A DNA stretch of 64,000 nt from Acidimicrobiia bacterium. GTDB lineage: Bacteria; Actinomycetota; Acidimicrobiia; Spongiisociales; ZC4RG35. How positions within the stretch are numbered: the first letter of the stretch is position 1; every line of letters starts with the position of its first letter. The notes under the pieces are model-generated. The model was not told the origin of the DNA, did not search any database, and worked only from the letters and a program-made list of their open reading frames with translations. A program made the translations under genes and the position numbers. The DNA lies in contig DATKEC010000117.1 of NCBI GenBank assembly GCA_035544575.1, forward strand, positions 11,865-75,864. The letters run 5' to 3'. Positions 4,434 to 46,852 of this stretch are shown here, in pieces.

Positions 4434-5300
4434 TCACCGCTTGCGCCGATACGGGTTGAGAAGGTCGCTCAGGGTGTCACCGAGCAACGTGAAGATCAGG
4501 ACGGTCACGAATATCGCACTCCCTGCGCCGACCGCAATCCACGGGTTCATCGACAGCAGCGTCTTCCCGGTGCCAAGCATGCGTCCCCATGATGGGGTGG
4601 GCGGCTGAACGCCGAGCCCGAGGAAGCTGAGCGCTGCTTCCGTGAGGACGGCGGTGGCGAACGTCAGCGTGAACTGCACCGTCGTGATCGAGACCAGATT
4701 GGGCAGGAGCGAGCGGGCCATGATGTAAAGATGGCTACCCCCGAGCGCCCGCGCCGCGAGGACGAACTCACTGCTCCGCAAGGACAGGGTCACCCCGCGG
4801 ACGAGGCGGGCGAAGCGGGGAATCTGAACGACCCCGATCGCGATGATCGTGTTCCTCAGGTTCGGCCCGAGTACCGCGACCGTGGCCATCGCCAGGATGA
4901 TGGGGGGGAACGCGAGCAGACCGTCGGTGACACGCATCGTCACGGTATCGACCAGCTTGCCGAAGTAGCCGCTCGCGATCCCCAGCGGAACACCAAACGC
5001 CACCGCAATCGCCGTCGCTCCGAACCCGACGTAGAGCGAGATGCGCGATCCGAAGATCACACGCGAGAAGACATCACGGCCAATCTCGTCGGTACCCAGC
5101 CAAAATTCCGAAGACGGCAGGTCGACAGCGAACCCGACCACGTCGGTGGCACCGTAAGGGGCGAGAGCGTCGGCGAAGACGGCCAGGGCGAGCAGCCCGA
5201 GCGCTGCGACCATCGTGAACAGGTGGAGCTTGTTGCCTACAAGTGCACGCCAGCGCCGGGCGCGGGCGGGCGTTGCGGCGGCGGAGCTACTGAGGGTCAT
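4434..5300 (-). CDS. Dpp/Opp-type ABC transporter permease (DppC-like).
   Basis: The real start is the internal ATG at 5300, which forms an ATGA overlap with the upstream permease stop. The protein has multiple TM-like hydrophobic stretches and the binding-protein-dependent permease signature region. Confidence 0.8.
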   Translation of the reverse strand: MTLSSSAAATPARARRWRALVGNKLHLFTMVAALGLLALAVFADALAPYGATDVVGFAVDLPSSEFWLGTDEIGRDVFSRVIFGSRISLYVGFGATAIAVAFGVPLGIASGYFGKLVDTVTMRVTDGLLAFPPIILAMATVAVLGPNLRNTIIAIGVVQIPRFARLVRGVTLSLRSSEFVLAARALGGSHLYIMARSLLPNLVSITTVQFTLTFATAVLTEAALSFLGLGVQPPTPSWGRMLGTGKTLLSMNPWIAVGAGSAIFVTVLIFTLLGDTLSDLLNPYRRKR

Positions 5301-6244
5301 GAGCGCGCGATCCTTGGATCGAGCCATGAGTAGGCGAGGTCGACGACCAGGTTCACGATGACGAAGGCTGCGGCCGAGACCAGCACCGCGACCTGGACCA
5401 CGTCGAATGCCCGCGTGAGTATCGACTGGATCATCAACCAACCGAGTCCGGGCCAGGTGAAGATCTGTTCGATCACGACCATGCCCCCCACCATGAGGCC
5501 GAAACTCACGCCGACTTCGGTGATTAGGGGAATCGAGGCGTTGCGGAGTGCATGGCGGTAGTTGATCCGGCGCGACTCCAGCCCCTTGGCCCGGGCGGTC
5601 CTGACGTAGTCGGCGTGTAAGACCTCGAGCATGCCCGCCCGCATGAAGCGGGTCAGCCTGGCCGCAGTGACGGTCCCGATCGTGATCACGGGCAGGACGA
5701 GCTGGCTCAGGTGGCGAAACGGATCCTGGGAGAACGGAACGTAACCTCCCGGCGGGAGGATCGGTAGCAGCTCCGCAAAAACGAGCAGCAGCGCGATGCC
5801 CAACACATAGGTCGGCATACTGAAACCGAGGGTGGCCAGCACGCGCGCAACGTGGTCCATCCAGGTGCCTTCACGTATCGCAGAGACCATGCCCAACGGA
5901 ACGGCGATGACCACAGCGAGGACGATCGAGATCACCGCCAGCTCCAGCGTTCGTCCGAGCGCCGGAAATACGAGACCCGCCACTTCGGCTCCACCGTGCG
6001 TGATGGACGTACCCAGGTCCCCGCGCACCAGGTTGCCCATCCAGCGGAAGTATTGCTCGACGAGCGGATCATCCAGGCCAAGCTCCGCCCGCAACGCGGC
6101 GTACGCCTCAGGGGGCGCGTCGAACCCCAACGTCATCGCCGCCGGATCTCCGGGCACGATTCGGAAGATGACGAACACTGCTGTCGCGACTATCCACATC
6201 ACCAGGAGGCCCTGGAGCACCCGGCGGAGTAGGTAGCGGCGCAT
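5297..6244 (-). CDS. Dpp/Opp-type ABC transporter permease (DppB-like).
   Basis: 315 aa starting MRRYLLRRVLQGLLVMWIVATAVFVIFRIVPGDP, a typical DppB N-terminus. Confidence 0.85.
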   Translation of the reverse strand: MRRYLLRRVLQGLLVMWIVATAVFVIFRIVPGDPAAMTLGFDAPPEAYAALRAELGLDDPLVEQYFRWMGNLVRGDLGTSITHGGAEVAGLVFPALGRTLELAVISIVLAVVIAVPLGMVSAIREGTWMDHVARVLATLGFSMPTYVLGIALLLVFAELLPILPPGGYVPFSQDPFRHLSQLVLPVITIGTVTAARLTRFMRAGMLEVLHADYVRTARAKGLESRRINYRHALRNASIPLITEVGVSFGLMVGGMVVIEQIFTWPGLGWLMIQSILTRAFDVVQVAVLVSAAAFVIVNLVVDLAYSWLDPRIARS

Positions 6245-7278
6245 CAGGAGCCAGATCCTGCGTTGGGTGGGAGCGGGCCTCGACGGGTTCCGCGAGCCGC
6301 TTCAGGACCGGGGAAGTGGCAGGCGACTCGTTGGGTCATTCCCTGACCCTGTACAAGGACAGGATCCTCGTCGGCACAAAGATCGACCGCACGCCAGCAC
6401 CTCGTTCTGAAGCGGCAACCGCTGGGTGGTTGCAGCGGATTGGGGAGATCGCCCTCGAGGACTATGCGGGTGCGCTTGCCGCCATCCAACCGGTGCGAGG
6501 GCACTGCGGACAGGAGCGCGTTCGTGTACGGATGCTGCGGGGCCGTGAACACGTCATCCCTCGTGCCGATCTCCACGATCTTGCCGAGGTACATCACCGC
6601 AACCCGGTCGGACACCTGACCAACCACTGACAGGTCATGCGCGATGAACAGATACGCCAAACCGAGCTGGTCCTTGAGATCCGCCAACAGGTTGAGGATC
6701 TGGGCCTGGATCGAGACGTCGAGAGCCGAGACGGGCTCGTCCAGGACGATCAGGGCCGGCTGCAAGGCCAACGCGCGCGCGATCGCGATGCGCTGTCGCT
6801 GTCCGCCCGAGAACTCGTGTGGGTAACGATCCAACGCCGCGAGCGGCAGCTGCACCAAGTCGAGAAGTTCGGGTGCGCGCCGAGCCGCCTCAGCGCGCCC
6901 CAGGCCGTGGATGCGAAACGGCTCGGCGAGGATTGCCCGAACACGAAACCGTGGGTTGAGCGAGGCGTAGGGATCCTGGAACACGATCTGGAAGTCGCGA
7001 CGGACCGGGCGCATGTCCCCGTGATCCAGCTCGGTGATGTCTCGACCTCGAAAGAAGATGCGGCCCGCAGCCGGGTCGACGAGTCGCATGATCGTGCGGC
7101 CCAGCGTCGACTTCCCGCATCCGGACTCACCGACGAGTCCCACTGTCTCACCCTCGGCGATCGTGAGTGAGGCTGAATCGACAGCGGTCAAAACCGCTAC
7201 TCCGTCGCCCCCCTGCCTTCTGACTGTGTAGCGGGTCGTGACTGACTCCACCTCGAGCAGGGCTCGTGACCCGGTCAT
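6244..7278 (-). CDS. Dpp/Opp-type ABC transporter ATP-binding protein (DppF-like).
   Basis: Walker A GESGCGKST and the LSGGQRQR signature are present. A C-terminal oligopeptide-ABC extension is also present. Confidence 0.9.
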   Translation of the reverse strand: MTGSRALLEVESVTTRYTVRRQGGDGVAVLTAVDSASLTIAEGETVGLVGESGCGKSTLGRTIMRLVDPAAGRIFFRGRDITELDHGDMRPVRRDFQIVFQDPYASLNPRFRVRAILAEPFRIHGLGRAEAARRAPELLDLVQLPLAALDRYPHEFSGGQRQRIAIARALALQPALIVLDEPVSALDVSIQAQILNLLADLKDQLGLAYLFIAHDLSVVGQVSDRVAVMYLGKIVEIGTRDDVFTAPQHPYTNALLSAVPSHRLDGGKRTRIVLEGDLPNPLQPPSGCRFRTRCWRAVDLCADEDPVLVQGQGMTQRVACHFPGPEAARGTRRGPLPPNAGSGS

Positions 7279-8315
7279 CGCCCACCACCGGTGGCTGCAC
7301 CCGGGTCACGCAAGCGCTCCCCAGCCCATATGACAGCCTCGGCCACGTAGTGACACTCCGCACGATGTCCGTCCCCCACCGTGTGGAGGTTCGGCGCCTC
7401 TTCGGCGCACAGGGCGCGGTCCGATCCGATCGCACACCGCGGACGGAACGAACATCCCTCGAGCTCGGAGTCGAGCCGGGGCGGCTGTCCGGGAATGGAG
7501 TAGAGACGCCGCTGCCGCCCCTCGATAGATGGGAGCGAGGCGAGCAGACCAATCGTGTAGGGGTGGCTCGGTCGAAGGAAGATGTCCTCGATCGTCCCCT
7601 GTTCGACGATTCGTCCTGCGTACATGACCGCTATGCGATCCGCTACCTGCGCAACGAGGCCGAGATCGTGTGTGATGAGGACGGTGGCTGCTCCGGTCTC
7701 CGCCTTCGCCGCCATGAGCACGTCGAGTACCTGAGCCTGGATCGTCACATCGAGCGCAGTAGTCGGCTCGTCGGCGATGAGCAGCTTCGGTCGGTTGGCA
7801 ATGGCCATCGCGATCATCGCCCGCTGCCGCATTCCGCCCGAGAACTCGTGAGGGAACTGGTGGTAGCGGCGCTCGGGTTGGGGGATCCCGACGAGTGCGA
7901 GTAGCTCGATGGCGCGTGCCCGATGAAGGTCGTCGTCGATATGGCGTGCGTGGGTCCACATGGCCTCGCGCAGCTGCTCACCGACCTTGATCACGGGATT
8001 CAACGACGTCATCGGATCCTGGAACACGACCGCCACGTCGCTTCCGCGGATGGAACGGAGTTGGTCTGCATCGAGAGAGAGCAGGTCGCGGCCCTCGAAC
8101 AGAGCTCGTCCGGAGACGATCCGCGCCGGTGGAGAAGGGACGAGCCCGAGCAGGGAGAGCACGGTCACCGTCTTGCCCGAGCCCGACTCGCCCACGATCC
8201 CGACCATCTCCCCGGGAAAGACCGTGAAGGACACCCCGTTGACGGCGTTGACCGTCCGATTGTCGGACTCGAATCGGACGCGCAGGTCGTCCACTTCAAG
8301 TAGCGGTGTCGTCAT
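7275..8315 (-). CDS. Dpp/Opp-type ABC transporter ATP-binding protein (DppD-like).
   Basis: Walker A GESGSGKT and signature FSGGMRQR. It forms an ATGA overlap with the downstream ATPase. Confidence 0.9.
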
Positions 8316-8408: not shown

Positions 8409-9977
8409 TCAGCCGGACAACGATACGTTCGTCAGGAACAAATGACCCTGTGTGTGGGCGATGAGTCCCGCAACGGATGCGGCCGTCGTCACCGGCGAGA
8501 GTCGGCCGCCGAGCACGATCTCAGGCTGACCTTCCATCGCCATTGCTTGTAGCTCCAGAATGGCGTTCCGGTAATCCTCGTCGCTCGGCATGGAACGCGC
8601 CTCGGTGAGCAGGTCGTAGAACTCCGGCCGCTGATCGATCCACCCGAGCGCCTCGGTGAACAGTTTGTTGTACGGGTGCGAGAGCAGGTCGTACTCGTCG
8701 GGCTTCGGAACCATGGCGCACAGCGCGAGATCGAAGTTGCCGGCGTCGTCGCCCAACGTGCGTGCCACGTACGTCCCTACATCGAGAACGCTGATCGTGA
8801 TGTCGATCCCGACCTCGGCGAGTTGGCTCTGCACCGCTTGAGCCAGTGTCTCGAACTGGAACCCCAGGCCACACACGATCATCTCGCCGCCTTCGACTCC
8901 ATCGGAGAACCCGGCCTCTGCCACCAGCGCCTGCGCCGTCTCGAGGTCGCGCTCGTTGTAAGAAGCGGCATCGGCGTTGAAGAAGGCCGGGTTGGCCTCC
9001 ATCGGGTTCGACAACACCTGCATGAAGCCGAACAGGCTGCGCGAGAGCGCCTGCCGGTCGAGTGCGTTGCTGACTGCCTGTCGAAGCTCCTGATTGTCCC
9101 ACGGAGCACGACGCGTGTTGATGTGGAAGTGATACAGACCCGAGTTGAACCCCTCCGGAGGCGTCAGAATCTGAAGTCCGGCCTGCTGCAGGGTGGCGAT
9201 CTCTCCGAGCGGCGTGTCCGCCAGCACCTGAACCTCGTTCGTCCGGATCTGCAGGGACTGCACGGTTCCGTCGGGGACCGTGCGATAGATCACGCCGTCC
9301 AGGTATGGGAGGCCATCCTGCCAGTAGTCGGGATTCCGCTCGACTTCGACCTGTTGGTTCCGCTCCCAGGACACGAACTTGAACGGACCGGTGCCCACGG
9401 GTGTCTCGGCGAGGTCGATCGTCGTGTCTTGTGGTGAGATGTAGACGTCCACCATCGTGCTCAGCAGAACCCGATCAGGTTCTGAGAGACGGATCTCCAC
9501 GGTCCGATCGTCGACGGCGACAGTCTCCGTCACACGGGCCAGCAGCGGTGCGGTTCGACCCGCCTCCGGTTCTGTCGCCCGGCCCATCGAAGCCACAACG
9601 TCCTCGGCGTCGAACTCAGACCCATCGTGGAAGACGACGTCATCCCGCAGGTTGAACGTCCACACCAGACCGTCCGCGGATGCGGACCAGTCCGTGGCGA
9701 GGCTTCCCACGATTTCATAGCTCGTGAGATCGAACTCGACGAGGGTGTCGTAGATGTTCGTGATGATGTTCCGGTCGTTCGTCGAACCGAAACGGTTCGG
9801 GTGAAGACCCGTCGGGTCGGCCGACTGGGCGATGACCAGGACGCCACCCGCGGTCGGCTCGGACGGTCCCGATCCGGTCGTGGTGGTGGCATCGTCTTCG
9901 CCACCGACACTGCTGCAAGCAGTGACGATCATCGCCAACGCCAAGAGCAGGGCCATCGAAGCTCGTATCCGCTGCAC
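8409..9977 (-). CDS. ABC transporter substrate-binding lipoprotein, family 5 (DppA/OppA-like).
   Basis: 522 aa with an N-terminal signal peptide and lipobox (MIVTAC). It is the first gene of the operon. Confidence 0.85.
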   Translation of the reverse strand: MQRIRASMALLLALAMIVTACSSVGGEDDATTTTGSGPSEPTAGGVLVIAQSADPTGLHPNRFGSTNDRNIITNIYDTLVEFDLTSYEIVGSLATDWSASADGLVWTFNLRDDVVFHDGSEFDAEDVVASMGRATEPEAGRTAPLLARVTETVAVDDRTVEIRLSEPDRVLLSTMVDVYISPQDTTIDLAETPVGTGPFKFVSWERNQQVEVERNPDYWQDGLPYLDGVIYRTVPDGTVQSLQIRTNEVQVLADTPLGEIATLQQAGLQILTPPEGFNSGLYHFHINTRRAPWDNQELRQAVSNALDRQALSRSLFGFMQVLSNPMEANPAFFNADAASYNERDLETAQALVAEAGFSDGVEGGEMIVCGLGFQFETLAQAVQSQLAEVGIDITISVLDVGTYVARTLGDDAGNFDLALCAMVPKPDEYDLLSHPYNKLFTEALGWIDQRPEFYDLLTEARSMPSDEDYRNAILELQAMAMEGQPEIVLGGRLSPVTTAASVAGLIAHTQGHLFLTNVSLSG

Positions 9978-10293: not shown

Positions 10294-11556
10294 ATGAACC
10301 CCCCCACCGAGGACACTCGACCCCCTACGAGGCCAGCGCCCCTCTCCGACGTGCGTGTACTTGCAGTCGAACAGTACGGTGCGGGCCCTTTCGGCACTCT
10401 GCAACTCGCCGACCTCGGCGCCGAAGTCATCAAAATCGAGGATCCTCGTTCCGGCGGAGACGTCAGCCGCTACGTCCCGCCATTCCAGGACGGGGAGCAC
10501 AGTCTGTTCTTCGAGTCGTTCAACCGAAACAAGCGGAGCTTGGGCCTCGACATCTCCAACCCCGCCGGGCGCCGGGTGTTCGAAGATCTCGTCGCCGTCT
10601 CCGACGTCGTGTACTCCAACCTTCGCGGCGACGTCCCCGCCCGGCTCCGGCTTCGCTACGCCGACCTGGCGGACGTCAACCCGGCGATCGTCTGCGTCTC
10701 ATTGTCCGGATTCGGCATGACCGGACCCCGCGTGGCCGAACCAGGCTACGACCCGATTCTTCAGGCGCTGGCTGGGTGGATGAGTGTCACGGGCGACCCG
10801 GCCGGGCCGCCCACCAAATCGGGACTGTCGCTAGTTGATTATGCGGGCGGATACGTCGCCGCGATTTCACTACTCGCCGCGCTTCATGCCGCGCGGCGTG
10901 ACGGCATCGGCATGGACTGCGACGTCAGCCTCTACGACACCGCCATCAGCCTTCTCACCTACCCGGCGATCTGGTACCTCAACGGCGGACTCATACCCGA
11001 GCGCAAGGCGAACTCGGCTCATCCCTCCCTCATCCCTTTTCAGGCATTCGAGGCGGCAGACGGATGGCTCACCGTCGCTTGCGCCAAAGAGAAGTTCTGG
11101 CAGCGCCTCGTCGTCGTGCTCGGGCTACCGGAACTCACCACCGATCCCCGGTTTTCCGACTTCGACGCTCGGAGGGAACACGCAGCCAGCCTCGGACCGA
11201 TCCTCGAGGGAGCCTTTCGTACCGACACGGTCGCGGGGTGGGTTGATCGTCTGGCAGACGCCGGAGTACCCACCGCCCCTGTCCAGTCCCTCCCCGAGGC
11301 ACTGACGGACGCCCATACTCTCGCCCGCGACCTCATCGTCGAGACCGACCATCCACTGTTCGGGCCGATCCGCCAGGTCGCCAGTTCGGTCCGGGCAGGT
11401 AACTCGATCACGGATCACCGACCCGGACCCGCGCGCAACGAGGCGTCGGACTACGCCCTGTCCACGATCCTCGGCTATGACCAGCGGACCATCGCCGCGC
11501 TCACCGCGGAAGGAGCGTTCGGCGAGGTTTCCGCTGAGTCCAAAGACTGCCGATGA
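10294..11556 (+). CDS. Family III CoA-transferase (CaiB/BaiF family).
   Basis: 420 aa with N-terminus LSDVRVLAVEQYGAGPFGTLQLADLGAEVIKIE. GGATGGAG RBS upstream. Confidence 0.85.
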   Translation: MNPPTEDTRPPTRPAPLSDVRVLAVEQYGAGPFGTLQLADLGAEVIKIEDPRSGGDVSRYVPPFQDGEHSLFFESFNRNKRSLGLDISNPAGRRVFEDLVAVSDVVYSNLRGDVPARLRLRYADLADVNPAIVCVSLSGFGMTGPRVAEPGYDPILQALAGWMSVTGDPAGPPTKSGLSLVDYAGGYVAAISLLAALHAARRDGIGMDCDVSLYDTAISLLTYPAIWYLNGGLIPERKANSAHPSLIPFQAFEAADGWLTVACAKEKFWQRLVVVLGLPELTTDPRFSDFDARREHAASLGPILEGAFRTDTVAGWVDRLADAGVPTAPVQSLPEALTDAHTLARDLIVETDHPLFGPIRQVASSVRAGNSITDHRPGPARNEASDYALSTILGYDQRTIAALTAEGAFGEVSAESKDCR

Positions 11557-11636: not shown

Positions 11637-11684
11637 CATCCGAGCCCAGGGAGTTGCGTGCACAGCGGAGAAAACAACCCCACG

Positions 11685-18011: not shown

Positions 18012-19607
18012 GTGAGGAACAAGACCCTCGGCCTGCTCCTGGTGCTGGCATTGGTCGCAACTGCGTGCACTCCGGGTGCCGATACAACGACCACAGCGAG
18101 TACCGGGACGACTGCGCCCAGCGAAACCACTACGACAGCCGCGGGGGACACGACCACAACCGCGGCACCCAGTGACCCGACCGGTGGCGCCCTGATCGTC
18201 GCGGAGACCACCCCGCCCGTCACCCTCGATCCAACCCAGTCGGCGCTGATCAAGACATGGCTGCCATGGCAGCTCGTTTTCGACTCCTTGATCCTTCAGC
18301 AGCCCGACGGCTCGTTCGAGCCGCGGCTGGCGACCGATTGGACGATCAGCGACGACGGCCTCACCTACACGTTCAACCTGCGGGAGGGCGTCGTCTTCCA
18401 CAACGGTGAGCCCTTCGAGGCCGACGATGTGGTGTTCACCTTCGAGCGGGCCAAAGAAGTGGGAATCCCGTATGCACTGGCCCGCGTCGGCGTCATCGAG
18501 TCGATCACCGCATTGGACGAACTCACCGTCGAAATCGTGCTCTCTCAGTTCGACTCCGGATTCCTGAACAACCTCGCAAACACGTTCCCGGTGTCGACCG
18601 CCATCCTCAACCGGGAGGCGAGCGCGACGTCCGATCCGGCCCTCTTCATGGTCGGGACCGGGCCATTCAAGATGGTGGCGTATGCCCCGGAACGGGAACT
18701 CGTCCTCGAGAAGAACGCCGAGTATTGGGAGCCCGACCGGCCCAAGGTGGACTCCCTCATCATCCAGTACATCCCCGAACAGCAGGCCCAACTCGCCGCC
18801 CTCCAGGCCGGGGAGATCGACCTGATGTTCCCGACGCCCGAGTCGGCGCTCGTCCTCGCTTCCGACCCGAACATCACTCTGGCGGAGGTGACGTCAGCGA
18901 ACATCGTGCGACTCAACGTCAACAGCAGCCGACCACCGCTCGATGACGTCAACGTTCGCCGGGCGATTGCGCTGGCCATCGACCGCCAAGCGATCGTCGA
19001 CGGAGCACTGCTCGGACAGGGAAAACCCTCCTCCTACATTCCGGAGGCATACGCCTGGGCACCCAGCCTCGAGGAGCAACCGTATTCGTCCCAGGACGTC
19101 GAAGAGGCGCAGCGTCTCCTCGCTGAAGCGGGATATCCGGACGGCGTCGACATCGAACTGATGCACCTGGCAGGTTATGGGACGTATCTGGACCTGTTCG
19201 TCGAGATCCTGGCCGACCAGTTGGCCGACGTCGGTATCCGGGCGAACATCGTCCCCCAGGAGCAGGCGACATGGCTCGACCGGCTACTGAACGCGAACTA
19301 CGACGTCACCGACAACGAGTTCTCGTTCCAGGCCGATCCGTTCCAATACTTGCGCATCCGCCGCGAACGGCAGGGGCCCGCCGATCCCGTCATCGACGAG
19401 CTCGAGGCGGCCGCCCTGGCGGCAGGTCCCGACGACCTGGTGGGCATCCTGGAAGAGCTCGCCCGGACCCATGCCGACCTGGTCTACCCCGATATCCCGA
19501 TCATGGCGCGCACGGCCTTCACGGCCTACCGGAACAACGTGGTGGGGGTGAACCAGGACTTCACGAACAGCTATCGCTTCCTGGTGGACGTCGGCAAGGA
19601 GGGTTGA
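18012..19607 (+). CDS. ABC transporter substrate-binding lipoprotein, family 5 (DppA-like), paralog 2. GTG start.
   Basis: AGGAGA RBS 5 nt before GTG 18012. Signal peptide with lipobox (LVATAC). The mature region is Thr-rich. Confidence 0.85.
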   Translation: MRNKTLGLLLVLALVATACTPGADTTTTASTGTTAPSETTTTAAGDTTTTAAPSDPTGGALIVAETTPPVTLDPTQSALIKTWLPWQLVFDSLILQQPDGSFEPRLATDWTISDDGLTYTFNLREGVVFHNGEPFEADDVVFTFERAKEVGIPYALARVGVIESITALDELTVEIVLSQFDSGFLNNLANTFPVSTAILNREASATSDPALFMVGTGPFKMVAYAPERELVLEKNAEYWEPDRPKVDSLIIQYIPEQQAQLAALQAGEIDLMFPTPESALVLASDPNITLAEVTSANIVRLNVNSSRPPLDDVNVRRAIALAIDRQAIVDGALLGQGKPSSYIPEAYAWAPSLEEQPYSSQDVEEAQRLLAEAGYPDGVDIELMHLAGYGTYLDLFVEILADQLADVGIRANIVPQEQATWLDRLLNANYDVTDNEFSFQADPFQYLRIRRERQGPADPVIDELEAAALAAGPDDLVGILEELARTHADLVYPDIPIMARTAFTAYRNNVVGVNQDFTNSYRFLVDVGKEG

Positions 19608-19615
19608 TCTGGATC

Positions 19616-19648
19616 AGCCGGGCGGGGACTCCTCCTTCCCGCCCGGCT
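19616..19648. promoter_or_regulatory. GC-rich hairpin (11-bp stem) immediately downstream of SBP gene 2.
   Basis: The sequence agccgggcggg gactcctcctt cccgcccggct. No U-tract follows. This mirrors the hairpin after SBP gene 1. Confidence 0.5.
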
Positions 19649-19688
19649 GGCCACTGCCACTCGCAACGAATCGTCGATCGGTGAACAC

Positions 19689-20714
19689 GTGACCTCTCAG
19701 CCGCTACTCCGGGTCAGAGATCTCGAGACGCGCTTCTATGCCGACTTCGGCGTTGTGCGTGCGGTGGACGGCGTCTCCTTCGATGTCCATCCGGGAGAAA
19801 CGCTCGGCCTGGTGGGCGAATCCGGCTCAGGCAAGAGCGTCACCGCCATGTCCATCCTGCGCCTGGTTGGCTCTCCCGGAAGGATCGTGGCGGGCTCCAT
19901 CGAACTCGAAGGCGTCGATCTCCTCGGTCTCGATGCCGAGGAAATGAGGCGCGTGCGAGGCGGACAGATCAGCACGGTGTTCCAGAATCCGATGACTGCC
20001 CTCAATCCTGCGCTCCGCATCGGCTGGCAGCTCGACGAAGCACACCTCGCACACCATCGCGACGGGACGAAGTCCGCGGCCCGGGAAAAGGCGATCGAGA
20101 TGCTGCGATCTGTTGGTATCGCAGAGGCGGAGACGCGAGCCGAGTCCTATCCACACGAGTACTCGGGCGGGATGCGACAGCGGATCGTGATCGCAATGGG
20201 GATGATGAACAACCCGAAGCTGATCATCGCCGACGAACCGACCACTGCGTTAGACGTCACCATTCAGGCACAGGTCATCGACCTGTTGAAGCGGCTGATC
20301 GCCGACCACGACATGGCCCTGATCCTCATCACACACAACATGGGCGTCGTCGCGAACATGTGTGATCGGGTAGCGGTGATGTACGCGGGTCAGATCGTCG
20401 AGGAGGCGCCCGTCGACAAACTCTTCGACGATCCGCGCCACCCGTACACCTGGGCGCTGCTGCGGTCCCTACCAAGCATCGAGACCCGCGGGGAACGACT
20501 GCCGGCCATCCCCGGCTTTCCACCAGACATGACCAACCCGCCGGAAGGCTGTCGGTTCCGGCCCCGCTGTCCGTTTGCCGAGGACGTTTGCGAGGAGCCG
20601 CCTCCGCTCGTGATGCTCGATGACGGGACGAAGTCGCGCTGCTGGATCGCCCAGCGTGGGGAGACCTTCGCCGACCGCGACGACCGACTTCTCCATCGGG
20701 ACAAGCCGGCGTGA
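19689..20714 (+). CDS. Dpp/Opp-type ABC ATP-binding protein (DppD-like), paralog 2.
   Basis: Walker A GESGSGKS and signature YSGGMRQR. Confidence 0.9.
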   Translation: MTSQPLLRVRDLETRFYADFGVVRAVDGVSFDVHPGETLGLVGESGSGKSVTAMSILRLVGSPGRIVAGSIELEGVDLLGLDAEEMRRVRGGQISTVFQNPMTALNPALRIGWQLDEAHLAHHRDGTKSAAREKAIEMLRSVGIAEAETRAESYPHEYSGGMRQRIVIAMGMMNNPKLIIADEPTTALDVTIQAQVIDLLKRLIADHDMALILITHNMGVVANMCDRVAVMYAGQIVEEAPVDKLFDDPRHPYTWALLRSLPSIETRGERLPAIPGFPPDMTNPPEGCRFRPRCPFAEDVCEEPPPLVMLDDGTKSRCWIAQRGETFADRDDRLLHRDKPA

Positions 20715-21772
20715 GCATTTCGGACGCCGGGGCTCCCGTCGATACCGGCGATGGCACGTCCCGCGCGCTGCTGCAGCTGACCGATGTCGTGAAGTACTTC
20801 ACGGTGCGGCAGGGTCTCCTGGCCGCCACTCACACGGTCCACGCGGTCGACGGAATCACGCTCAACATCTTCGAGGGAGAGACACTCGGCGTGGTCGGCG
20901 AGTCGGGCTGCGGTAAGTCGACCCTCGCCCGAGTGGTCGTCGGACTGCTCCGCCCGGATTCGGGATCCGTCGAGTTGGGTGGGACAGACATCCACGCCGG
21001 CGACAGCGACGCAGCGAGTGCACGACGCAAGCTTCAGATGGTGTTCCAGGATCCGGCGGGCTCGCTCAACCCCAGACTCAGCGTTCTCGACAGCGTTGCC
21101 GAACCGCTGCATGCCCGCGGGATGCGCAGGACCGACGACCGCGTGTTCGAGGCACTCGACCTCGTCGGTCTGAAGGCCGAGTACGCGCACCGTCTCCCCC
21201 ATCAACTCTCGGGCGGACAGCAACAGCGTGCCTGTATCGCACGAGCGCTGATCAGTGAGGCGCGTGTGGTGGTGCACGACGAGGCGGTCAGCGCTCTCGA
21301 CATCTCCCTTCAGGCACAGGTGCTGAACCTGTTGCGCGACCTCCAAGACCGACTGGGCCTCACCTACGTCTTCATCTCCCACGACCTCGCCACCGTCCAG
21401 ACGATCAGCACGCGGATCGCGGTGATGTACCTGGGGAAGGTGGTGGAACTGTCCCCCGCCCGCAGATTCCACGAGCGGCCCCTTCATCCCTATTCCGTGG
21501 CCCTGCGTTCGGCGGTACCCGTGCCGCATCCGGCGGTCGAGCGGGCCAGGGCGCGCATCCTCCTGCGAGGCGACGTGCCGAGTCCGCTCGCACCGCCATC
21601 CGGTTGCCGGTTCAATACACGATGCCCGCTCGCCCAGGACATATGCCGCGAAGCGGAACCACCCTTGACTGAACATGCCCCGGGACAATGGGCGGCCTGT
21701 CACTTCGCTGGCAGATTCGACCGCACGCTCAGCGCAATTCGAGAACAGCCCCACGATGGGACTGCATCATGA
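20711..21772 (+). CDS. Dpp/Opp-type ABC ATP-binding protein (DppF-like), paralog 2.
   Basis: Walker A GESGCGKST and signature LSGGQQQR. GTGA overlap with the upstream gene. Confidence 0.9.
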   Translation: MSISDAGAPVDTGDGTSRALLQLTDVVKYFTVRQGLLAATHTVHAVDGITLNIFEGETLGVVGESGCGKSTLARVVVGLLRPDSGSVELGGTDIHAGDSDAASARRKLQMVFQDPAGSLNPRLSVLDSVAEPLHARGMRRTDDRVFEALDLVGLKAEYAHRLPHQLSGGQQQRACIARALISEARVVVHDEAVSALDISLQAQVLNLLRDLQDRLGLTYVFISHDLATVQTISTRIAVMYLGKVVELSPARRFHERPLHPYSVALRSAVPVPHPAVERARARILLRGDVPSPLAPPSGCRFNTRCPLAQDICREAEPPLTEHAPGQWAACHFAGRFDRTLSAIREQPHDGTAS

Positions 21773-22719
21773 TCCGGTTCGCCCTGGAACGGATCATCGG
21801 CCTGATCCTCGTACTGTTCGCCGTCTCCGCCATCGTGTTCGGGCTCGGGTCGCTGATACCCGGAGATCTCGCCACGGTGCTGGTGGGTTCGGAAGGCGCA
21901 ACCCCAGAGCAGTTCGAGAGGGTTCGTGAGGAACTCGGGCTGAACGACCCACTCGTCGTGCAGTACGGCCGCTGGATGGGTGGTGTCGTCCAGGGTGACT
22001 TCGGCGTCTCACCCATCACCGGCCGCTCCGTGAATGGGGAACTCGCCTCTCAGGTGCCCGTGTCCCTCGAACTCACGATCCTCGCACTCGCCGTCTCTAC
22101 GCTCATCGGAATTCCCATGGGAATCCTGGCAGCCGTCCACGCCAACAATGCCTGGGACTTCGTGATTCGTGCCGCTCTCTTGATAGGGTTCTCGGTGCCG
22201 ATCTTCGTCGCCGGGATCCTCCTGCTGTTGTTTGGATCCAAGTATCTGACTCCGCTGTATGCAGCCTCCTACACACCAATCTCGGAGGGCATCGTCGAGA
22301 ATCTGCGGAGCATGGTCTTCCCGGTCATGTCGATCGCTATCCCGGTGGCCGCCATGACGATGCAAATGACGCGGACGAGCATGCTGGAGACTCTCGGACA
22401 GCACTACATCACAATGGCGCGAGCCAAAGGGGCGCGGCGGCCGAACATCCTCTACATCCACGCTCTCAAGAACGCCATGTCACCCGTCCTGACGCTGCTC
22501 GGGTTCCAGTTCGGGATCCTCCTCGGCGGTCTGTTCGTGGTCGAGGCGATCTTCAGCCTCCCTGGCGTCGGACGGGGCCTGCTGGTGGCGATCGGGCAAC
22601 GGGACTACCCGCTCGTGATGGCGATCACCATGGTGATCGCCACCGCATTCGTCGTCGTCAATGTTCTCGTCGACCTGCTGTATCCGATACTCGACCCGCG
22701 ACAGAGAGCTGCACGATGA
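21769..22719 (+). CDS. Dpp/Opp-type ABC permease (DppB-like), paralog 2.
   Basis: Real start is the ATG at 21769 (MIRFALERIIGLILVLF), which forms an ATGA overlap. Confidence 0.85.
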   Translation: MIRFALERIIGLILVLFAVSAIVFGLGSLIPGDLATVLVGSEGATPEQFERVREELGLNDPLVVQYGRWMGGVVQGDFGVSPITGRSVNGELASQVPVSLELTILALAVSTLIGIPMGILAAVHANNAWDFVIRAALLIGFSVPIFVAGILLLLFGSKYLTPLYAASYTPISEGIVENLRSMVFPVMSIAIPVAAMTMQMTRTSMLETLGQHYITMARAKGARRPNILYIHALKNAMSPVLTLLGFQFGILLGGLFVVEAIFSLPGVGRGLLVAIGQRDYPLVMAITMVIATAFVVVNVLVDLLYPILDPRQRAAR

Positions 22720-23606
22720 CTGCCACTCCGTACACATACCGTCCCCGAAGACTCGCACGACTGGTCCGGAACCCGAGCGGGCTGATCGCGACGATCATCG
22801 TCACTCTATTTCTCGTGATGACAGTCGCCGGCCCGTGGATCGCTCCGTACGACCCAAACGAACTCGGCAGCGGGACCCCGCTGCAGGGACCGTCAGCAGA
22901 GCATTGGTTTGGAACAGACGAGCTCGGGCGCGATCAGCTGAGCCGGGTCGTCTCGGCAGCACGGGTGGCAGTGGGAGTGTCGGTCATCTCTGTCACAATC
23001 GCTCTCGTGGTTGGTGGCATCGGGGGCATCGCAGCCGGCTACGCACGAGGCCTGACCGACAAGATCCTCGTGCGGGTGATGGACGTGATGTTCTCTTTCC
23101 CCACGCTTCTCCTGGCGATCGTGATCGTGGCGGTCCTCGGGCCGGGTCTGCTGACCGCCTCGCTCGCGATCGCCATCGTCTACACGCCCCGGTTCGCACG
23201 GGTCGCCCGCGGGGCCGCCCTCGGCATACGCAACGAGTTGTACATCGAGGCTGCTCAACTCGCCGGCGTGCACCCGGTGCGGATCGCCCGCCGTCACGTT
23301 GTCCCGAACATCGCCGCCCCGATGACCGTGCTGGCCGCCCTCTCGATGTCGACGGCGCAGCTCGCATATGCCGCGCTCAGCTTCCTCGGCCTCGGGACAC
23401 TCCCCCCCCAAGCCGACTACGGGAGCATGCTGGCCAGAGCGCGGAACTTCATGACGATCGCACCCTCGATGGTGATCTTCCCTTCGATCGCCCTCGTGCT
23501 CCTGATCGTCGGCTTCAACCTCTTCGGCGATGCATTGCGCGACGTGCTCGACCCGCGAGCACAGCGCGGCAAGGCATCGATCCAGGGGGTCGAAGCGACG
23601 ATCTGA
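22716..23606 (+). CDS. Dpp/Opp-type ABC permease (DppC-like), paralog 2.
   Basis: 296 aa with TM segments. ATGA overlap with the upstream permease gene. Confidence 0.85.
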   Translation: MTATPYTYRPRRLARLVRNPSGLIATIIVTLFLVMTVAGPWIAPYDPNELGSGTPLQGPSAEHWFGTDELGRDQLSRVVSAARVAVGVSVISVTIALVVGGIGGIAAGYARGLTDKILVRVMDVMFSFPTLLLAIVIVAVLGPGLLTASLAIAIVYTPRFARVARGAALGIRNELYIEAAQLAGVHPVRIARRHVVPNIAAPMTVLAALSMSTAQLAYAALSFLGLGTLPPQADYGSMLARARNFMTIAPSMVIFPSIALVLLIVGFNLFGDALRDVLDPRAQRGKASIQGVEATI

Positions 23607-23620
23607 AAGGGGACGCTCCC

Positions 23621-25225
23621 ATGGCGATCGCCGAGTTCCGAATCGACGGCGGGACCATCATCGACGGAACCGGGGAGCCCGGCCGGATCGGACGGGTGGC
23701 GATCCAGGGCGGACGCCTCATCGTCACCGACGATGCCGTCCCCGCCCGTCGCATCATCGACGCCGACGGGGCCATCGTTTCGCCTGGTTTCATCGACCTG
23801 CACACGCACTCGGACTTCACGCTGCCGCTCCACCCTGCTGCACCGGCGATGGTCCACCAGGGTGTCACGACGCAAGTCACCGGAAACTGTGGGTTCTCCC
23901 CGTTCCCCGCGCCGCCGGTACGCGTGAATGAGCTGATGGCACTCACGAAGTTCATCGACAAGGGAATCGATTGGGACCGGTGTGCGACTGCCGACGACTA
24001 CATCCGATACCTCGAAGACACGTCTCCGGCGACGAACGTCGTCCTGCAGGTCGGTCTGGGGACCGTCCGCGTGGCAACGATGGGCTTCGACCGACGCCCT
24101 CCCACTTCCCCGGAGAGGGCCCAGATGGAAAGGGAGATCTCGGCCGCGTTCGACGCTGGCGCCCTCGGAATCTCCAGTGGCCTCGTGTATGCCCCCGGTA
24201 GTTACGCCAGCGCTGACGAGGTCCGCGCGCTCGTTTCCGTCGCGGCAGCCCGGGGCGGGTTCTACTCCACCCACATCAGGAACGAGGGTGCGGAGTTACA
24301 GGCTTCGATCGAAGAGGCACTCGACACCGCGCGATCGGCCGGCGCTCCTCTCCAGATCAGCCATCACAAGGCGATCGGCTCCCCGAACTGGGGCTCGGTG
24401 AACTCCAGCCTCGCCCAGATCGACCGTGCCATCGATCTCGGTCAAGATGTCCTCGCCGATGTGTACCCGTACCGTGCGGGTAGCACCACGCTCACCCAGA
24501 TCCTGCCGACCTGGGCCCTCGAAGGCGGCATCCCAGCCATGCGAAGGAACCTCCAGGATCCGGCCGTGCGCAAGCGGATCGCCCACGAGATGACACGCCC
24601 AGACGCCCTCCGCGACTTCGACCCGAACGCGATCGTGCTCGCCGAGATCCCCCCGGGACCCAACGCGGGACATGAGGGTCGCTCCCTTGCCGAACTCGCC
24701 GCAGATGCCGGCCAGGATCCGATCGACGTTGCGTTCCGGCTACTCGTCGAAGAAGGTGCGGGAATCGTCATGGTGGTGTTCGGCATGGCGGAGGAGGACG
24801 TGAAGCGGGTGATGAGTCACCACGCGGTTGCGATTGCGAGTGATGGCTGGACGCTCGATCCTTCCACAGGCGGTACCCCGCATCCCCGCAGCTATGGGAC
24901 GTTCCCGCGCGTCCTCGGCAAGTATGTGCGGGAGGAAGGAGTGCTGTCACTCGAAGCAGCCGTACACAAGATGACCGGCCTCCCGGCGCGTCGTCTGCGT
25001 GGACTGCAGCGCGGCCACATCGAGTCGGGATTCGTTGCAGACATCGTCGTGTTCGATCCCGCAGCGATTGCCGATGTCGCCACGTATTCAGACCCACATC
25101 GATTCAGTGTCGGGCTGGAACATGTCTTCGTCGGCGGCGTCCCCGTCATCGAGGACCGTCTCGAAACCGGCGCCCGCCCTGGCTCGGTGTTAACCAGAGA
25201 GCGCCGAGCCGATCCAGTCGAGTGA
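23621..25225 (+). CDS. D-aminoacylase (N-acyl-D-amino-acid deacylase) family amidohydrolase.
   Basis: Real start at 23621 (MAIAEFRIDGGTIIDGTG...FIDLHTHSDF) with an AAAGGGGA RBS. Last gene of Dpp operon 2. Confidence 0.75.
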   Translation: MAIAEFRIDGGTIIDGTGEPGRIGRVAIQGGRLIVTDDAVPARRIIDADGAIVSPGFIDLHTHSDFTLPLHPAAPAMVHQGVTTQVTGNCGFSPFPAPPVRVNELMALTKFIDKGIDWDRCATADDYIRYLEDTSPATNVVLQVGLGTVRVATMGFDRRPPTSPERAQMEREISAAFDAGALGISSGLVYAPGSYASADEVRALVSVAAARGGFYSTHIRNEGAELQASIEEALDTARSAGAPLQISHHKAIGSPNWGSVNSSLAQIDRAIDLGQDVLADVYPYRAGSTTLTQILPTWALEGGIPAMRRNLQDPAVRKRIAHEMTRPDALRDFDPNAIVLAEIPPGPNAGHEGRSLAELAADAGQDPIDVAFRLLVEEGAGIVMVVFGMAEEDVKRVMSHHAVAIASDGWTLDPSTGGTPHPRSYGTFPRVLGKYVREEGVLSLEAAVHKMTGLPARRLRGLQRGHIESGFVADIVVFDPAAIADVATYSDPHRFSVGLEHVFVGGVPVIEDRLETGARPGSVLTRERRADPVE

Positions 25226-46849: not shown

Positions 46850-46852
46850 GGG

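Follow-up and report, generated by a model that had tools for sequence, protein, structure and literature searches.

Gene layout of the locus

The window, as we call the whole 64,000-nucleotide stretch of DNA analysed here, carries two operons (1 and 2) that each encode a five-gene ABC importer of the Opp/Dpp/Nik family in the order substrate-binding protein (SBP), OppD-like ATPase, OppF-like ATPase, permease B and permease C, that is, A-D-F-B-C (Table 1). The coordinates and gene order of both operons, as given in an earlier note on this DNA, were confirmed by a Pfam or NCBIfam call for every component, and gene prediction run independently on an identical contig in the public databases (L001) returned the same genes, including the start at 18012. 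In both operons neighbouring genes overlap by 1-4 bp, a gap of 81-93 bp follows the SBP gene, and the genes of each importer are predicted to be translationally coupled. For the operon 1 permease C, a longer TTG ORF (to 5441) is probably unused; in relatives the product is called as 285-289 aa.

Table 1. Features of the locus, numbered from the first position of the window
Feature	Coordinates	Strand	Basis and remarks
N,N-dimethylformamidase-like large subunit	607-2901	-	DMFA2_C, E 7e-86; conserved operon 1 partner
Small dimethylformamidase alpha-like ORF	2841-3182	-	ORF list; conserved operon 1 partner
Enolase-superfamily (MR/MLE) gene, acid-sugar-dehydratase-like	3285-4409	+	Pfam; convergent with operon 1, conserved partner
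Operon 1 permease C	4434-5300	-	OppC_N + BPD_transp_1; ATG at 5300 overlaps B by 4 bp
Operon 1 permease B	5297-6244	-	BPD_transp_1_N + BPD_transp_1
Operon 1 OppF/DppF-like ATPase	6244-7278	-	Pfam + NCBIfam; 4 bp overlap with D gene
Operon 1 OppD/DppD-like ATPase	7275-8315	-	ABC_tran + oligo_HPY; best NCBIfam models OppD/DppD
Operon 1 substrate-binding lipoprotein	8409-9977	-	SBP_bac_5 PF00496, E 1e-80; signal peptide ends in lipobox VTAC
CoA-transferase III	10294-11556	+	Pfam; between operons 1 and 2
LacI-family regulator	11658-12683	+	Pfam; between operons 1 and 2
Free lipoyl protein, 79 aa	12933-12694	-	Divergent from operon 2
E1 alpha	13953-12946	-	Pfam; divergent from operon 2
E1 beta-like	about 14942-13926	-	ORF/gene calls; divergent from operon 2
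Amidohydro_1	16452-15043	-	Pfam; 432 aa as called on L001
Class-III aminotransferase	17817-16459	-	Pfam; divergent from operon 2
Operon 2 substrate-binding lipoprotein	18012-19607	+	SBP_bac_5 (Pfam), E 1e-90; GTG start; signal peptide MRNKTLGLLLVLALVATAC
Operon 2 OppD-like ATPase	19689-20714	+	Pfam + NCBIfam
Operon 2 OppF-like ATPase	20711-21772	+	Pfam, NCBIfam, L001 gene call; 4-bp overlap
Operon 2 permease B	21769-22719	+	Pfam, L001 gene call; 4-bp overlap
Operon 2 permease C	22716-23606	+	Pfam, L001 gene call; 4-bp overlap
Long-form N-acyl-D-amino-acid-deacylase homologue (Dam), 534 aa	23621-25225	+	Amidohydro_3; sixth operon 2 gene
unk412, unnamed family of ~400 aa	25190-26428	-	Convergent with Dam, with a 36-bp overlap at the Dam 3' end
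Fold-type-III PLP D-amino-acid deaminase/aldolase-like gene	26494-27765	+	Pfam; PDB 3gwq "D-serine deaminase", E 6.5e-79
NAD epimerase-like gene	27780-28709	+	Pfam
Amdase/Asp-Glu-racemase-superfamily gene	28723-29469	+	Pfam
D-2-hydroxyacid dehydrogenase	31150-32121	-	Pfam
PTE-family gene	32118-33035	-	Pfam
SDR	33069-33845	-	Pfam
D-2-hydroxyacid dehydrogenase, second	33870-34937	-	Pfam
Third SBP_bac_5 ABC operon	52131-57752	-	Canonical A-B-C-(fused DF); comparator

The operon 1 SBP has orthologues of 51-96% identity in Acidimicrobiia/Ilumatobacteraceae MAGs, and its closest solved structures are SBPs of the DppA/GsiB/HbpA type (E 1e-48 or weaker). Operon 1 orthologues with 60-91% SBP identity keep the A-D-F-B-C order together with the MR_MLE and DMF_alpha/DMFA2_C genes: a 374-aa MR_MLE gene lies convergently behind permease C in L011 and L012 and nearby in L005, and the DMF_alpha and DMFA2_C genes adjoin the operon in all three contigs. 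Galactonate dehydratase models match the window's MR/MLE gene weakly. Operon 1 would provide transport for a conserved catabolic module of its own, in which it is accompanied by the two-subunit dimethylformamidase-like amidase, the acid-sugar-dehydratase-like member of the enolase superfamily, an SDR and a PTE-family hydrolase; its cargo may not be peptides at all.

The operon 2 SBP, a 531-aa gene call identical on L001, has orthologues of 66-94%. Between the operons, the arrangement of the CoA-transferase III and LacI-family genes is repeated in the syntenic contig L003/L005, and the minus-strand gene set at 12694-17817 is based on Pfam, ORFs and gene calls on L001-L004, L008 and L095. The window also holds a third SBP_bac_5 operon, which the earlier note overlooked.

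Gene order and origin of the two importers

We surveyed 80 GTDB loci, each chosen around an OppD-type gene: the permeases came first in 64 and the ATPases in three, and 12 were without an adjacent permease. Placing the ATPases before the permeases, described earlier as unusual, is indeed rare (3 of the 67 informative reference operons), and A-D-F-B-C itself occurred in this sample in L056 only. The sample also yielded a DFABC example from Pontibacillus (L015); in B. subtilis appDFABC, the ATPase genes D-F are likewise located ahead of the permease genes B-C. Since oppDFBCA has been documented in Lactobacillus delbrueckii (PMC5561223), the ATPase-first order is not unprecedented.

The earlier note held that the shared order implies a block duplication. 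The comparison of the five protein pairs clearly speaks against this, because the paired proteins are not each other's nearest relatives. Their identities are 31% for A, 54% for D, 50% for F, 40% for B and 37% for C. All 120 homologues of the operon 1 SBP among the matches listed score above the operon 2 SBP, and an SBP encoded in a relative's genome shares 48% identity with that of operon 2; SBP homologues at ~45% identity are found in plain A-B-C clusters. Among 66 sampled operons, the partner operon ranked 15th/26th by BLAST for D, 47th/43rd for F, 15th/5th for B and 20th/13th for C. The operon 1 D protein is 58% identical to those of canonical-order actinobacterial operons vs. 53.5% to operon 2 D, and the operon 1 F protein is 64.5% identical to that of a Gaiellaceae BCDF operon vs. 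49.7% to operon 2 F.

Neighbour-joining trees were built from operons sampled, among the matches listed, by similarity to operon 2 D. In the D+F tree, operon 1 grouped with the canonical-order actinobacterial operons L044/L077/L081 at 100% bootstrap and was sister to operon 2 in 0%, and in the B+C tree both operons fell with canonical ABCDF operons and with the window's third operon. The differing histories of the operon 1 ATPase and permease pairs point to cassette shuffling rather than to duplication of a whole block. Synteny in relatives likewise speaks against a block duplication: each operon has its own orthologues (51-96%) in the same order and with its own partner enzymes.

Duplication of the five genes as a block within the lineage, with the shared order as a trace left after the copies diverged, would account for a rare order found in two operons 8 kb apart, and the best non-orthologous matches of the operon 2 permease B are indeed operon 1-type B proteins, by merely 211-214 vs. 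202 bits. Nevertheless, we regard it as very improbable given the D+F bootstraps, the higher identity of operon 1 F to the Gaiellaceae protein, the SBPs, which at 31% identity are far from nearest relatives, and the fact that relatives with SBP identities as low as 53-60% already carry the two operons as distinct syntenic modules. That two adjacent operons should share an order of 1-5% frequency by pure chance is, in turn, hard to credit. An old A-D-F-B-C operon may have been ancestral to both modules. In that case either the operon 1 ATPase cassette would later have been replaced through recombination with an actinobacterial operon of canonical order, or the operons of the latter kind would have been re-arranged. 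With only 3 of 67 anchors showing the ATPases first and one A-D-F-B-C operon in the sample, two independent origins side by side are unlikely; the B+C tree places both operons in one clade of <=15 operons with 91% bootstraps, and its incongruence with the D+F tree suggests cassette exchange. We nonetheless consider this ancestry a tentative possibility, rather unlikely on balance: the same B+C clade holds the canonical ABCDF operons and the third window operon, direct sister grouping of operons 1 and 2 reaches only 5%, and other DF-before-BC operons (L033b, L056a, L084b, L091b) fail to join them. Taken together, the data make it likely that operons 1 and 2, in a genome that probably belongs to the Acidimicrobiia (Actinomycetota), are separate, anciently diverged importers of the PepT family (TC 3.A.1.5), each serving its own module, and not a duplicated block, with operon 2 working along the route proposed below.

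The deacylase homologue Dam and the proposed operon 2 route

The claim that operon 2 is extended by a gene of the N-acyl-D-amino-acid deacylase family proved correct, both physically and consistently across related contigs. The gene begins 14 bp past permease C on the same strand and is preceded by a ribosome-binding site, AAAGGGGA. Dam lies directly behind permease C in L001-L004, L008, L009 and L094-L097, and operon 2 orthologues with SBP identity of 53-91% keep A-D-F-B-C plus Dam. The position of Dam is the same in contigs with SBPs of 53-94% identity, Dam itself being only 48-61% identical. In metagenomes the linkage takes the forms DFBC-Dam (L094-L097), DFBC-(two 2-Hacid_dh)-deaminase-Dam-unk412 (L117, L120) and ABCDF-Dam (L159, L166). 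It is clade-specific and not general, because in more than 50 of the 80 metagenomic Dam homologues the flanking sequence, often short, showed no gene of the Opp/Dpp type. This majority, together with uninformative promoter and terminator scans, would suit a Dam that merely adjoins operon 2 with no functional tie to the transporter. Such a coincidence is scarcely credible in view of the close same-strand spacing with its ribosome-binding site, the position conserved at these identities, and the independent ABCDF-deacylase fusions in L038, L159 and L166.

By phmmer against the PDB, Dam matched the A. faecalis D-aminoacylase 1m7j (AfDam, E 1.4e-91), the N-acyl-D-Glu deacylase 3gip (BbDam, 1.7e-87) and PpOngB (3e-65), vs. 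only 1e-6 for dihydroorotases; it therefore clusters with true D-aminoacylases, as the earlier note had assumed, rather than with L-specific or dihydroorotase-type enzymes. Profile scores were 395 bits for AfDam, 392 for BbDam and 314 for PpOngB, and the NCBIfam model NF006560 gave 220 bits, below its cut-off of 340. All metal and carboxylate-anchor residues of the Alcaligenes D-aminoacylase are present, the conserved positions being HxH, Cys90, His218, His248, Asp408, Lys250, Tyr282/284, Ser288 and Arg423. In the acyl pocket, Trp410 (Trp in 57 of 80 homologues) takes the place of a Leu reported to be strictly conserved among characterised enzymes (PMC12017989), and Val, Ile and Gly are found at AfDam Phe191, Met254 and Met346. 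Dam is ~50 aa longer than AfDam and BbDam; since its insertion domain between YPY and the "FGM" segment is ~45 aa longer, the specificity loop (AfDam Leu298, BbDam Arg295) cannot be aligned. Judged by its sequence, Dam falls into a long, as yet uncharacterised form of the family whose acyl pocket contains Trp.

The convergent unk412 found no match in Pfam, NCBIfam or PDB sequence searches, and its homologues comprise 1,661 cluster representatives at E <= 1e-3. Its AF2 model (pLDDT 90.5; Foldseek matches Cwp19, PgaB-C, GH20 and GH42) predicts a glycoside-hydrolase-like TIM barrel in which no catalytic residues could be assigned. The unk412 gene occurs alongside Dam at nine of the 80 Dam loci from metagenomes, and the same pairing is seen in L003 and L008. 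The solved relatives of the deaminase-like gene all act on D-amino acids; the gene is absent beside Dam in L003, the closest syntenic relative. The gene set at 26494-29469 recurs with Dam in metagenome loci as an "s Z u e" module. The genes at 31150-34937 are probably downstream members of the operon 2 catabolic set, and a pair of 2-Hacid_dh genes stands ahead of the deaminase-Dam-unk412 set in each of L105, L117 and L120.

From these families we infer the following route. The membrane-anchored lipoprotein would capture the substrate outside the cell, the B/C permease heterodimer would pass it through, and the D/F ATPase heterodimer would power transport. Dam, a member of the D-aminoacylase family, would act as a metal-dependent amidohydrolase in the cytoplasm and be co-transcribed with the importer. 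The imported compound would be N-acylated, with a free alpha-carboxylate and the D configuration at its alpha-carbon; Dam would strip the acyl group and leave a D-amino acid-type product, which the neighbouring fold-type-III PLP enzyme would deaminate. The resulting 2-oxo acid would be processed further by the D-2-hydroxyacid dehydrogenases together with the aminotransferase and the E1/lipoyl proteins. Candidate substrates are N-acyl-D-amino acids, D-peptides and N-acetylated amino-sugar acids; the N-acyl-D-amino acids and D-Ala peptides named earlier are possible, though they are not the sole candidates.

In the OngB/OngC pathway, a fold-type-III deaminase acts after a deacetylase (PMC9537276). 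Instead of N-acyl-D-amino acids or D-peptides, the operon 2 set might break down an amino-sugar acid carrying an N-acetyl group, or a glycoside of it, e.g. C1-oxidised chitooligosaccharides ending in GlcNAc1A. In that case the ABC importer would take up the oligomer and unk412 would cleave it; an OngB-like deacetylation and an OngC-like deamination would then yield a 2-keto-3-deoxy acid, to be followed by aldolase or dehydrogenase reactions. The confident TIM-barrel model of unk412, a recurring partner of the Dam clade, fits such a scheme, as do the chitin-oligosaccharide binding protein 1zty among the SBP relatives, Dam Gly388, which matches OngB Gly348 (Met346 in AfDam), and the recurrence of the module with DHDPS-family, FAA-hydrolase, SDR, two 2-hydroxyacid-dehydrogenase and GntR/FCD regulator genes, typical of sugar-acid routes. 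We nevertheless find it unlikely. The profile scores of Dam favour AfDam and BbDam over PpOngB. Thr289 of Dam occupies the position at which OngB requires Ser292, its Val189 and Ile252 are hydrophobic, and a conserved hydrophobic loop, L295-P-x-W298, stands in place of the OngB Gln (PMC12017989); unk412 offers no assignable catalytic residues, no KDG kinase (KdgK), GH20 or LPMO was seen within the window, and the window holds the D-amino-acid-type genes Aminotran_4, DAO, GGT and a racemase-superfamily gene.

Comparison with known systems

Like E. coli DppABCDF and GsiABCD (PepT), operons 1 and 2 combine an SBP_bac_5 protein, two BPD_transp_1 permeases and two oligo_HPY ATPases, in the order A-D-F-B-C rather than A-B-C-D-F, and their partner enzymes are not peptidases. 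The window SBPs are lipoproteins at E ~1e-40 from DppA, and their nearest solved SBPs are DppA, GsiB (YliB) and HbpA. The earlier label "Dpp-type" holds at the family level and fails at the level of equivalogs, the scores being below the NCBIfam cut-offs (146 vs. 1005 bits for DppA, 159 vs. 594 for GsiB). In oppDFBCA and appDFABC the binding-protein gene is last or in the middle, whereas it is first in the window operons, and the sampled DF-before-BC operons do not group with these in trees. The oppDFBCA operons of Lactobacillus delbrueckii and Lactococcus lactis nonetheless share with them D-F before B-C in one operon (PMC5561223).

Dam belongs to the family of 1m7j and of Bordetella Bb3285 (3gip), with which it shares the HxH, the bridging Cys, two His, the catalytic Asp, the Lys/Tyr/Ser/Arg set holding the alpha-carboxylate, and the Thr after the conserved Ser; without the OngB Ser292 and Gln298 signature, it stands nearer to D-aminoacylases. 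The known OngB/OngC pathway is confined to Gamma- and one Betaproteobacterium and relies for uptake in Pseudoalteromonas prydzensis on TonB receptors and a sodium-solute symporter instead of an ABC importer; neither KdgK nor GH20 is present in the window. An upstream glycoside-hydrolase step is carried out by OngA in P. prydzensis and possibly by unk412 here. In both, a D-aminoacylase-fold deacetylase adjoins a fold-type-III PLP deaminase (PMC9537276, PMC12017989), and the window pair can be likened to the OngB/OngC pair that feeds 2-oxo/2-keto-3-deoxy acid metabolism.

Composition of the operons and their surroundings

In the window, whose G+C content is 62-68%, the ORF listing and the Pfam and NCBIfam scans bore out two five-gene operons of identical order, in which a gene for the SBP (A) is followed by those for two ATPases (D and F) and two permeases (B and C). 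An independent gene call on the identical public contig (Logan SRR8556377) gave the same six operon 2 genes, the start at 18012 included. The N-terminus of both SBPs, as read from the translations, bears a signal peptide with a terminal lipobox Cys, which fits a monoderm actinobacterium. Promoter and terminator scans of both operons gave counts equal to the shuffle expectation and were not taken as evidence; the sole promoter-like site found lies at 10127-10098 on the minus strand.

Positions of the features in the window (operon 1 and operon 2 genes from the ORF listing with Pfam/NCBIfam)
Feature	Position	Strand	Remark
Dimethylformamidase-like pair	607-3182	minus	DMFA2_C large subunit and 113-aa alpha-like ORF
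Operon 1 permease C	5300-4434	minus	
Operon 1 permease B	6244-5297	minus	
Operon 1 OppF-like ATPase	7278-6244	minus	
Operon 1 OppD-like ATPase	8315-7275	minus	
Operon 1 SBP_bac_5 protein	9977-8409	minus	
E1 alpha and E1 beta of a 2-oxoacid dehydrogenase, free-standing lipoyl protein	12694-15338	minus	lipoyl protein of 79 aa
Operon 2 SBP	18012-19607	plus	
Operon 2 D	19689-20714	plus	
Operon 2 F	20711-21772	plus	
Operon 2 B	21769-22719	plus	
Operon 2 C	22716-23606	plus	
Deacylase, Amidohydro_3, 534 aa	23621-25225	plus	14 bp 3' of permease C, preceded by the AAAGGGGA motif
unk412, ~400 aa	25190-26428	minus	convergent with the deacylase, 36-bp overlap
Fold-type-III PLP protein	26494-27765		3gwq "D-serine deaminase", E 6.5e-79
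PTE	32118-33035		
Class-IV aminotransferase (D-amino-acid/BCAT family), DAO-family FAD oxidoreductase, second MR/MLE gene	40549-44093		
583-aa ORF	45731-47482	minus	C-terminal 330 aa: phosphotriesterase-family domain with 32% identity to the PTE at 32118-33035
Third SBP_bac_5 ABC operon	57752-52131	minus	canonical A-B-C plus fused D-F ATPase

The designation of both operons as Dpp-type, proposed in the earlier note, holds at the level of the PepT (Opp/Dpp/Nik) family and is not supported for Dpp proper. The SBPs match PF00496 (SBP_bac_5) with E-values of 1e-80 (operon 1) and 1e-90 (operon 2), as Cluster-C SBPs of the PepT family (TC 3.A.1.5) do. All four ATPases likewise show the family's combination of ABC_tran with PF08352 (the oligo_HPY C-terminal extension), the best NCBIfam models dividing them into OppD/DppD and DppF/OppF types, and the permeases of both operons are of its OppB (BPD_transp_1_N) and OppC (OppC_N) types. 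In contrast, the scores for orthology with E. coli Dpp remained below the NCBIfam equivalog cut-offs for DppA (107 and 146 bits vs. 1005), DppF (336 and 303 vs. 660), DppB (202 and 207 vs. 590) and DppC.

According to Pfam, there are no peptidases among the partner genes of either operon. Operon 1 is accompanied by dehydratase-like, dimethylformamidase-like and lactonase-like genes, with a LacI regulator nearby, and its cargo is probably not a plain peptide. Its enolase-superfamily neighbour was considered as a dipeptide epimerase, which would suit a peptide importer, and this reading was rejected because the models and structures that the gene matches are those of acid-sugar dehydratases. The dimethylformamidase-like pair is conserved beside operon 1 orthologues, as are SDR and PTE genes, and hints at an amide substrate. 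In close relatives (syntenic locus L005, 9365-12745), operon 1 and the MR/MLE gene are set apart by a glyoxalase gene, an orphan SBP gene whose product is 48% identical to the SBP of operon 2, and a PTE gene; no such insert is present in the window at 4410-4434, where only 24 bp separate the end of operon 1 from the MR/MLE stop.

The third SBP_bac_5 operon, not mentioned in the earlier note, is followed by genes for a xylose-isomerase-like TIM barrel and a GFO/IDH/MocA oxidoreductase. The genes at 40549-44093 add to those of D-amino-acid type, and the window as a whole looks like a single large catabolic island. The N-terminal ~250 residues of the 583-aa ORF had no Pfam match, and this ORF may be over-extended in the high-GC DNA.

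Origin of the shared gene order

The background for gene order was provided by 80 GTDB loci among the matches listed, each with a gene of the OppD type as its anchor and with the neighbours typed by BLAST. These loci came from a scan with an ATPase alignment, which yielded no close orthologues among the matches listed (best 57%), so that they are usable only as gene-order background and as outgroups. Among the matches listed, permeases precede ATPases at the anchor in 64 of the 80 loci and ATPases precede permeases in 3, while 12 have no permease adjoining the anchor; five further operons with D-F before B-C are second operons within the same loci, and the complete A-D-F-B-C order occurs in one operon only, at L056. 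The arrangement is thus a minority one, amounting to roughly 1-5% in this biased sample of the matches listed. The order is indeed unusual, as had been claimed, though precedented: D-F precede B-C in oppDFBCA of Lactobacillus delbrueckii (PMC5561223).

That the shared order reflects a block duplication, as the earlier note supposed, is not supported, since identities, BLAST ranks, synteny and trees agree that the five protein pairs are not mutual nearest relatives. The operons share 31% identity in A, 54% in D, 50% in F, 40% in B and 37% in C, and permease C of operon 2 is nearer to that of the third operon (43%) than to that of operon 1. Homologues of the operon 2 SBP form their own orthologue set at 66-94% identity, followed by a next tier at 42-53%, and those of the operon 1 SBP (51-96% identity; named best matches from Ilumatobacteraceae and Acidimicrobiia MAGs) outscore the operon 2 SBP in 120 of 120 cases among the matches listed. 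When 66 sampled operons were ranked by bit score among the matches listed, the partner operon came 15th/26th for D, 47th/43rd for F, 15th/5th for B and 20th/13th for C; F of operon 1 is 64.5% identical to F of a Gaiellaceae BCDF operon vs. 49.7% to F of operon 2.

Synteny separates the two operons in the same way. Operon 1-type orthologues keep A-D-F-B-C with convergent MR_MLE, DMF_alpha/DMFA2_C, SDR and PTE genes, and operon 2-type orthologues keep it with the deacylase as a neighbour; SBP homologues at ~45% identity sit in plain A-B-C clusters. In a close relative, a 613-kb contig has the two operons arranged alike, together with an additional SBP that shares 48% identity with that of operon 2.

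Neighbour-joining trees with bootstrap were built for D+F and for B+C. In the former, operon 1 grouped with the canonical-order actinobacterial operons L044, L077 and L081 in 100% of replicates and was sister to operon 2 in 0%. In the latter, both operons joined canonical ABCDF operons and the third operon of the window in one loosely defined clade, direct sisterhood of the two reaching 5%; within operon 1 (4434-8315 compared), the permeases, unlike the ATPases, never grouped with L044, L077 and L081. The histories of the ATPase cassette and the permease cassette are therefore incongruent, which points to cassette exchange within such operons. An old common origin of the A-D-F-B-C arrangement followed by cassette exchange is a less probable reading, though one that would best account for two neighbouring operons having one rare order. 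Even a rare common gene order was no sign of recent duplication here, and the evidence for cassette shuffling is a side product worth pursuing.

The deacylase and its linkage to operon 2

The assignment of the additional gene of operon 2 to the D-aminoacylase family was confirmed. Its closest solved relatives are Alcaligenes faecalis D-aminoacylase (AfDam, 1m7j; E 1.4e-91), Bordetella N-acyl-D-glutamate deacylase (BbDam, 3gip; E 1.7e-87) and the GlcNAc1A deacetylase of Pseudoalteromonas prydzensis (PpOngB; E 3e-65), vs. dihydroorotases at E ~1e-6; a four-orthologue profile gave 395, 392 and 314 bits for AfDam, BbDam and PpOngB, respectively. The metal ligands and the catalytic Asp of a Cys-bridged amidohydrolase (HxH, bridging Cys, two His and Asp: H61, H63, C90, H218, H248, D408) align with the ligands of 1m7j and are conserved in 79-80 of 80 metagenomic homologues. 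The anchors of the alpha-carboxylate and amide (Y190, K250, Y282/Y284, S288, R423) are also present, and all these residues together are conserved in 72-80 of the 80; the roles of the active-site residues are taken from PMC12017989.

The acetyl-methyl pocket differs. Where the AfDam, BbDam and OngB groups are reported to have a strictly conserved Leu behind the catalytic Asp (SDGL; PMC12017989), the window enzyme has Trp (SDGW, W410), as do 57 of 80 homologues. The OngB-type signature, Ser292, Gln298 and a small polar pocket of Ala193, Ala256 and Gly348 (PMC12017989), is absent: the window enzyme has Thr289, Val189 and Ile252, and its L295-P-x-W298 loop, conserved among the homologues, lacks a conserved Gln; Gly348 alone has a counterpart, Gly388. 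The insertion domain is ~45 aa longer than in AfDam, BbDam and OngB, so that the specificity position (AfDam L298, BbDam R295, OngB Q298) has no alignment; in both single-protein and profile searches of the PDB, the alignment broke at this domain and the equivalent residue was not placed. The deacylase also scores below the NCBIfam cut-off of its own best model. It is a D-aminoacylase family member whose specificity is probably distinct.

The position of the deacylase after permease C is conserved across related contigs, in agreement with its proposed tie to operon 2: it is found there in contigs whose SBP is 53-94% identical and whose deacylase is only 48-61% identical. A scan with the deacylase alignment gave 80 metagenomic homologue loci, including DFBC-deacylase (L094-L097), canonical ABCDF-deacylase (L159, L166), and DFBC followed by two 2-hydroxyacid dehydrogenases, (FAA hydrolase), deaminase, deacylase and unk412, an unnamed family (L117, L120); most of the remaining homologues had no such transporter within their flanks, which were often short. 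For this clade, the link of the deacylase to transport is real and is supported by conserved synteny; literature searches gave no paper tying a D-aminoacylase to a Dpp-type transporter. The ABCDF-amidohydrolase arrangement of Bacilliculturomica (L038) was rejected as an orthologous case: with 28% identity and no SHHK motif, it is a loose parallel only.

A further A-D-F-B-C operon with a deacylase (L009; JGI 3300076801, contig Ga0645780_10418; SBP 53% and deacylase 48% identical to those of the window) has a frameshifted permease B, and PALP, FAA-hydrolase, deaminase-like and epimerase-like genes lie behind it. The syntenic relative stems from this sample too, so that a single community or genome may harbour more than one module of this kind. 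When L003 of this relative (15576-21596) is compared with the window (23621-31122), the transporter genes are 80-91% identical and the deacylase, unk412 and GGT only 58-61%, a level equal to that of the more distant L008, which suggests that the deacylase-unk412 pair was replaced or is evolving much faster.

A probable catabolic module and its possible substrate

The unk412 protein had no Pfam, NCBIfam or PDB sequence match, the PDB search being empty even at E 1; its family numbers 1,661 cluster representatives at E <= 1e-3, of which 1,104 remain at E <= 1e-10, with all named members labelled "hypothetical". In Foldseek, its confident AlphaFold (AF2) model (pLDDT 90.5) matched Cwp19 (E 1.7e-12), the PgaB C-terminal domain, GH20 and GH42 (TM 0.55-0.60, probability 1.00). 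The predicted fold is a glycoside-hydrolase-like TIM barrel, the (beta/alpha)8-barrel of GH42/GH20/GHL10/GH153-like families, with an invariant Cys cluster (C148...C207-x-C209-xx-C212). Present with the deacylase clade in 9 of 80 metagenome loci, as well as in L003 and L008, unk412 is a fixed partner of the long-form deacylases.

Further downstream, the solved relatives of the PLP protein all act on D-amino acids, and Pfam identified epimerase-like, Amdase/racemase-superfamily, GGT, two D-2-hydroxyacid dehydrogenase, PTE-family and SDR genes. This set recurs with the deacylase elsewhere, alongside DHDPS-family, FAA-hydrolase and GntR/FCD genes. Divergent from operon 2 lie genes for a class-III aminotransferase, an Amidohydro_1 enzyme, E1 alpha/beta and the free lipoyl protein. 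The E1 alpha/E1 beta/lipoyl trio is conserved beside the operon 2 module in L003, L008 and L095, and no E2 catalytic domain was found near it in the window.

Beside the observed family assignments and conserved linkage, we infer a route in which the lipoprotein SBP would hand an N-acylated compound with a D-configured alpha-carbon and a free alpha-carboxylate to the B/C-D/F importer. The deacylase would take off the acyl group, the PLP enzyme would deaminate the product to a 2-oxo acid, and the dehydrogenases, aminotransferase and E1 proteins would process it further. The same deacylation-deamination logic operates in OngB/OngC of oxidative chitin use, a route "akin to D-amino acid catabolism" (PMC9537276).

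As to the substrate, an N-acetylated amino-sugar acid or its glycoside is a possibility, favoured by the glycoside-hydrolase-like partner unk412 and by the sugar-acid-type genes in the module. The hydrophobic pocket residues of the deacylase, its Thr in place of Ser292 of OngB and its greater similarity to AfDam and BbDam favour, as the other candidates, an N-acyl-D-amino acid of the classical kind or a peptide with D residues. We give only a small chance to the reading that operon 2, the long-form deacylase, unk412, the fold-type-III deaminase and the dehydrogenases constitute an undescribed ABC-fed actinobacterial pathway for a glycosylated or conjugated N-acyl D-amino(sugar) acid, e.g., oxidised chitin or peptidoglycan-derived fragments, with unk412 as the founder of a new family of glycoside hydrolases and a new specificity class of D-aminoacylases made up of the long-form enzymes with Trp410.

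Acidimicrobiia, abundant in the sea and in fresh water, are poorly cultured, and D-configured amino compounds make up a large, slowly degraded part of dissolved organic nitrogen. The conserved module of an ABC importer, a D-aminoacylase-type enzyme and a D-amino-acid deaminase is a candidate route to this pool and offers a defined gene set for expression and testing. The TIM-barrel family tied to the long-form deacylase clade, uncharacterised so far, is another side product worth pursuing; it has ~1,100 cluster representatives (E <= 1e-10), and a search for its function would cost little. The importer of the PepT family and, in its catabolic cluster, the amidohydrolase of the D-aminoacylase family add new members to well-known kinds of system.
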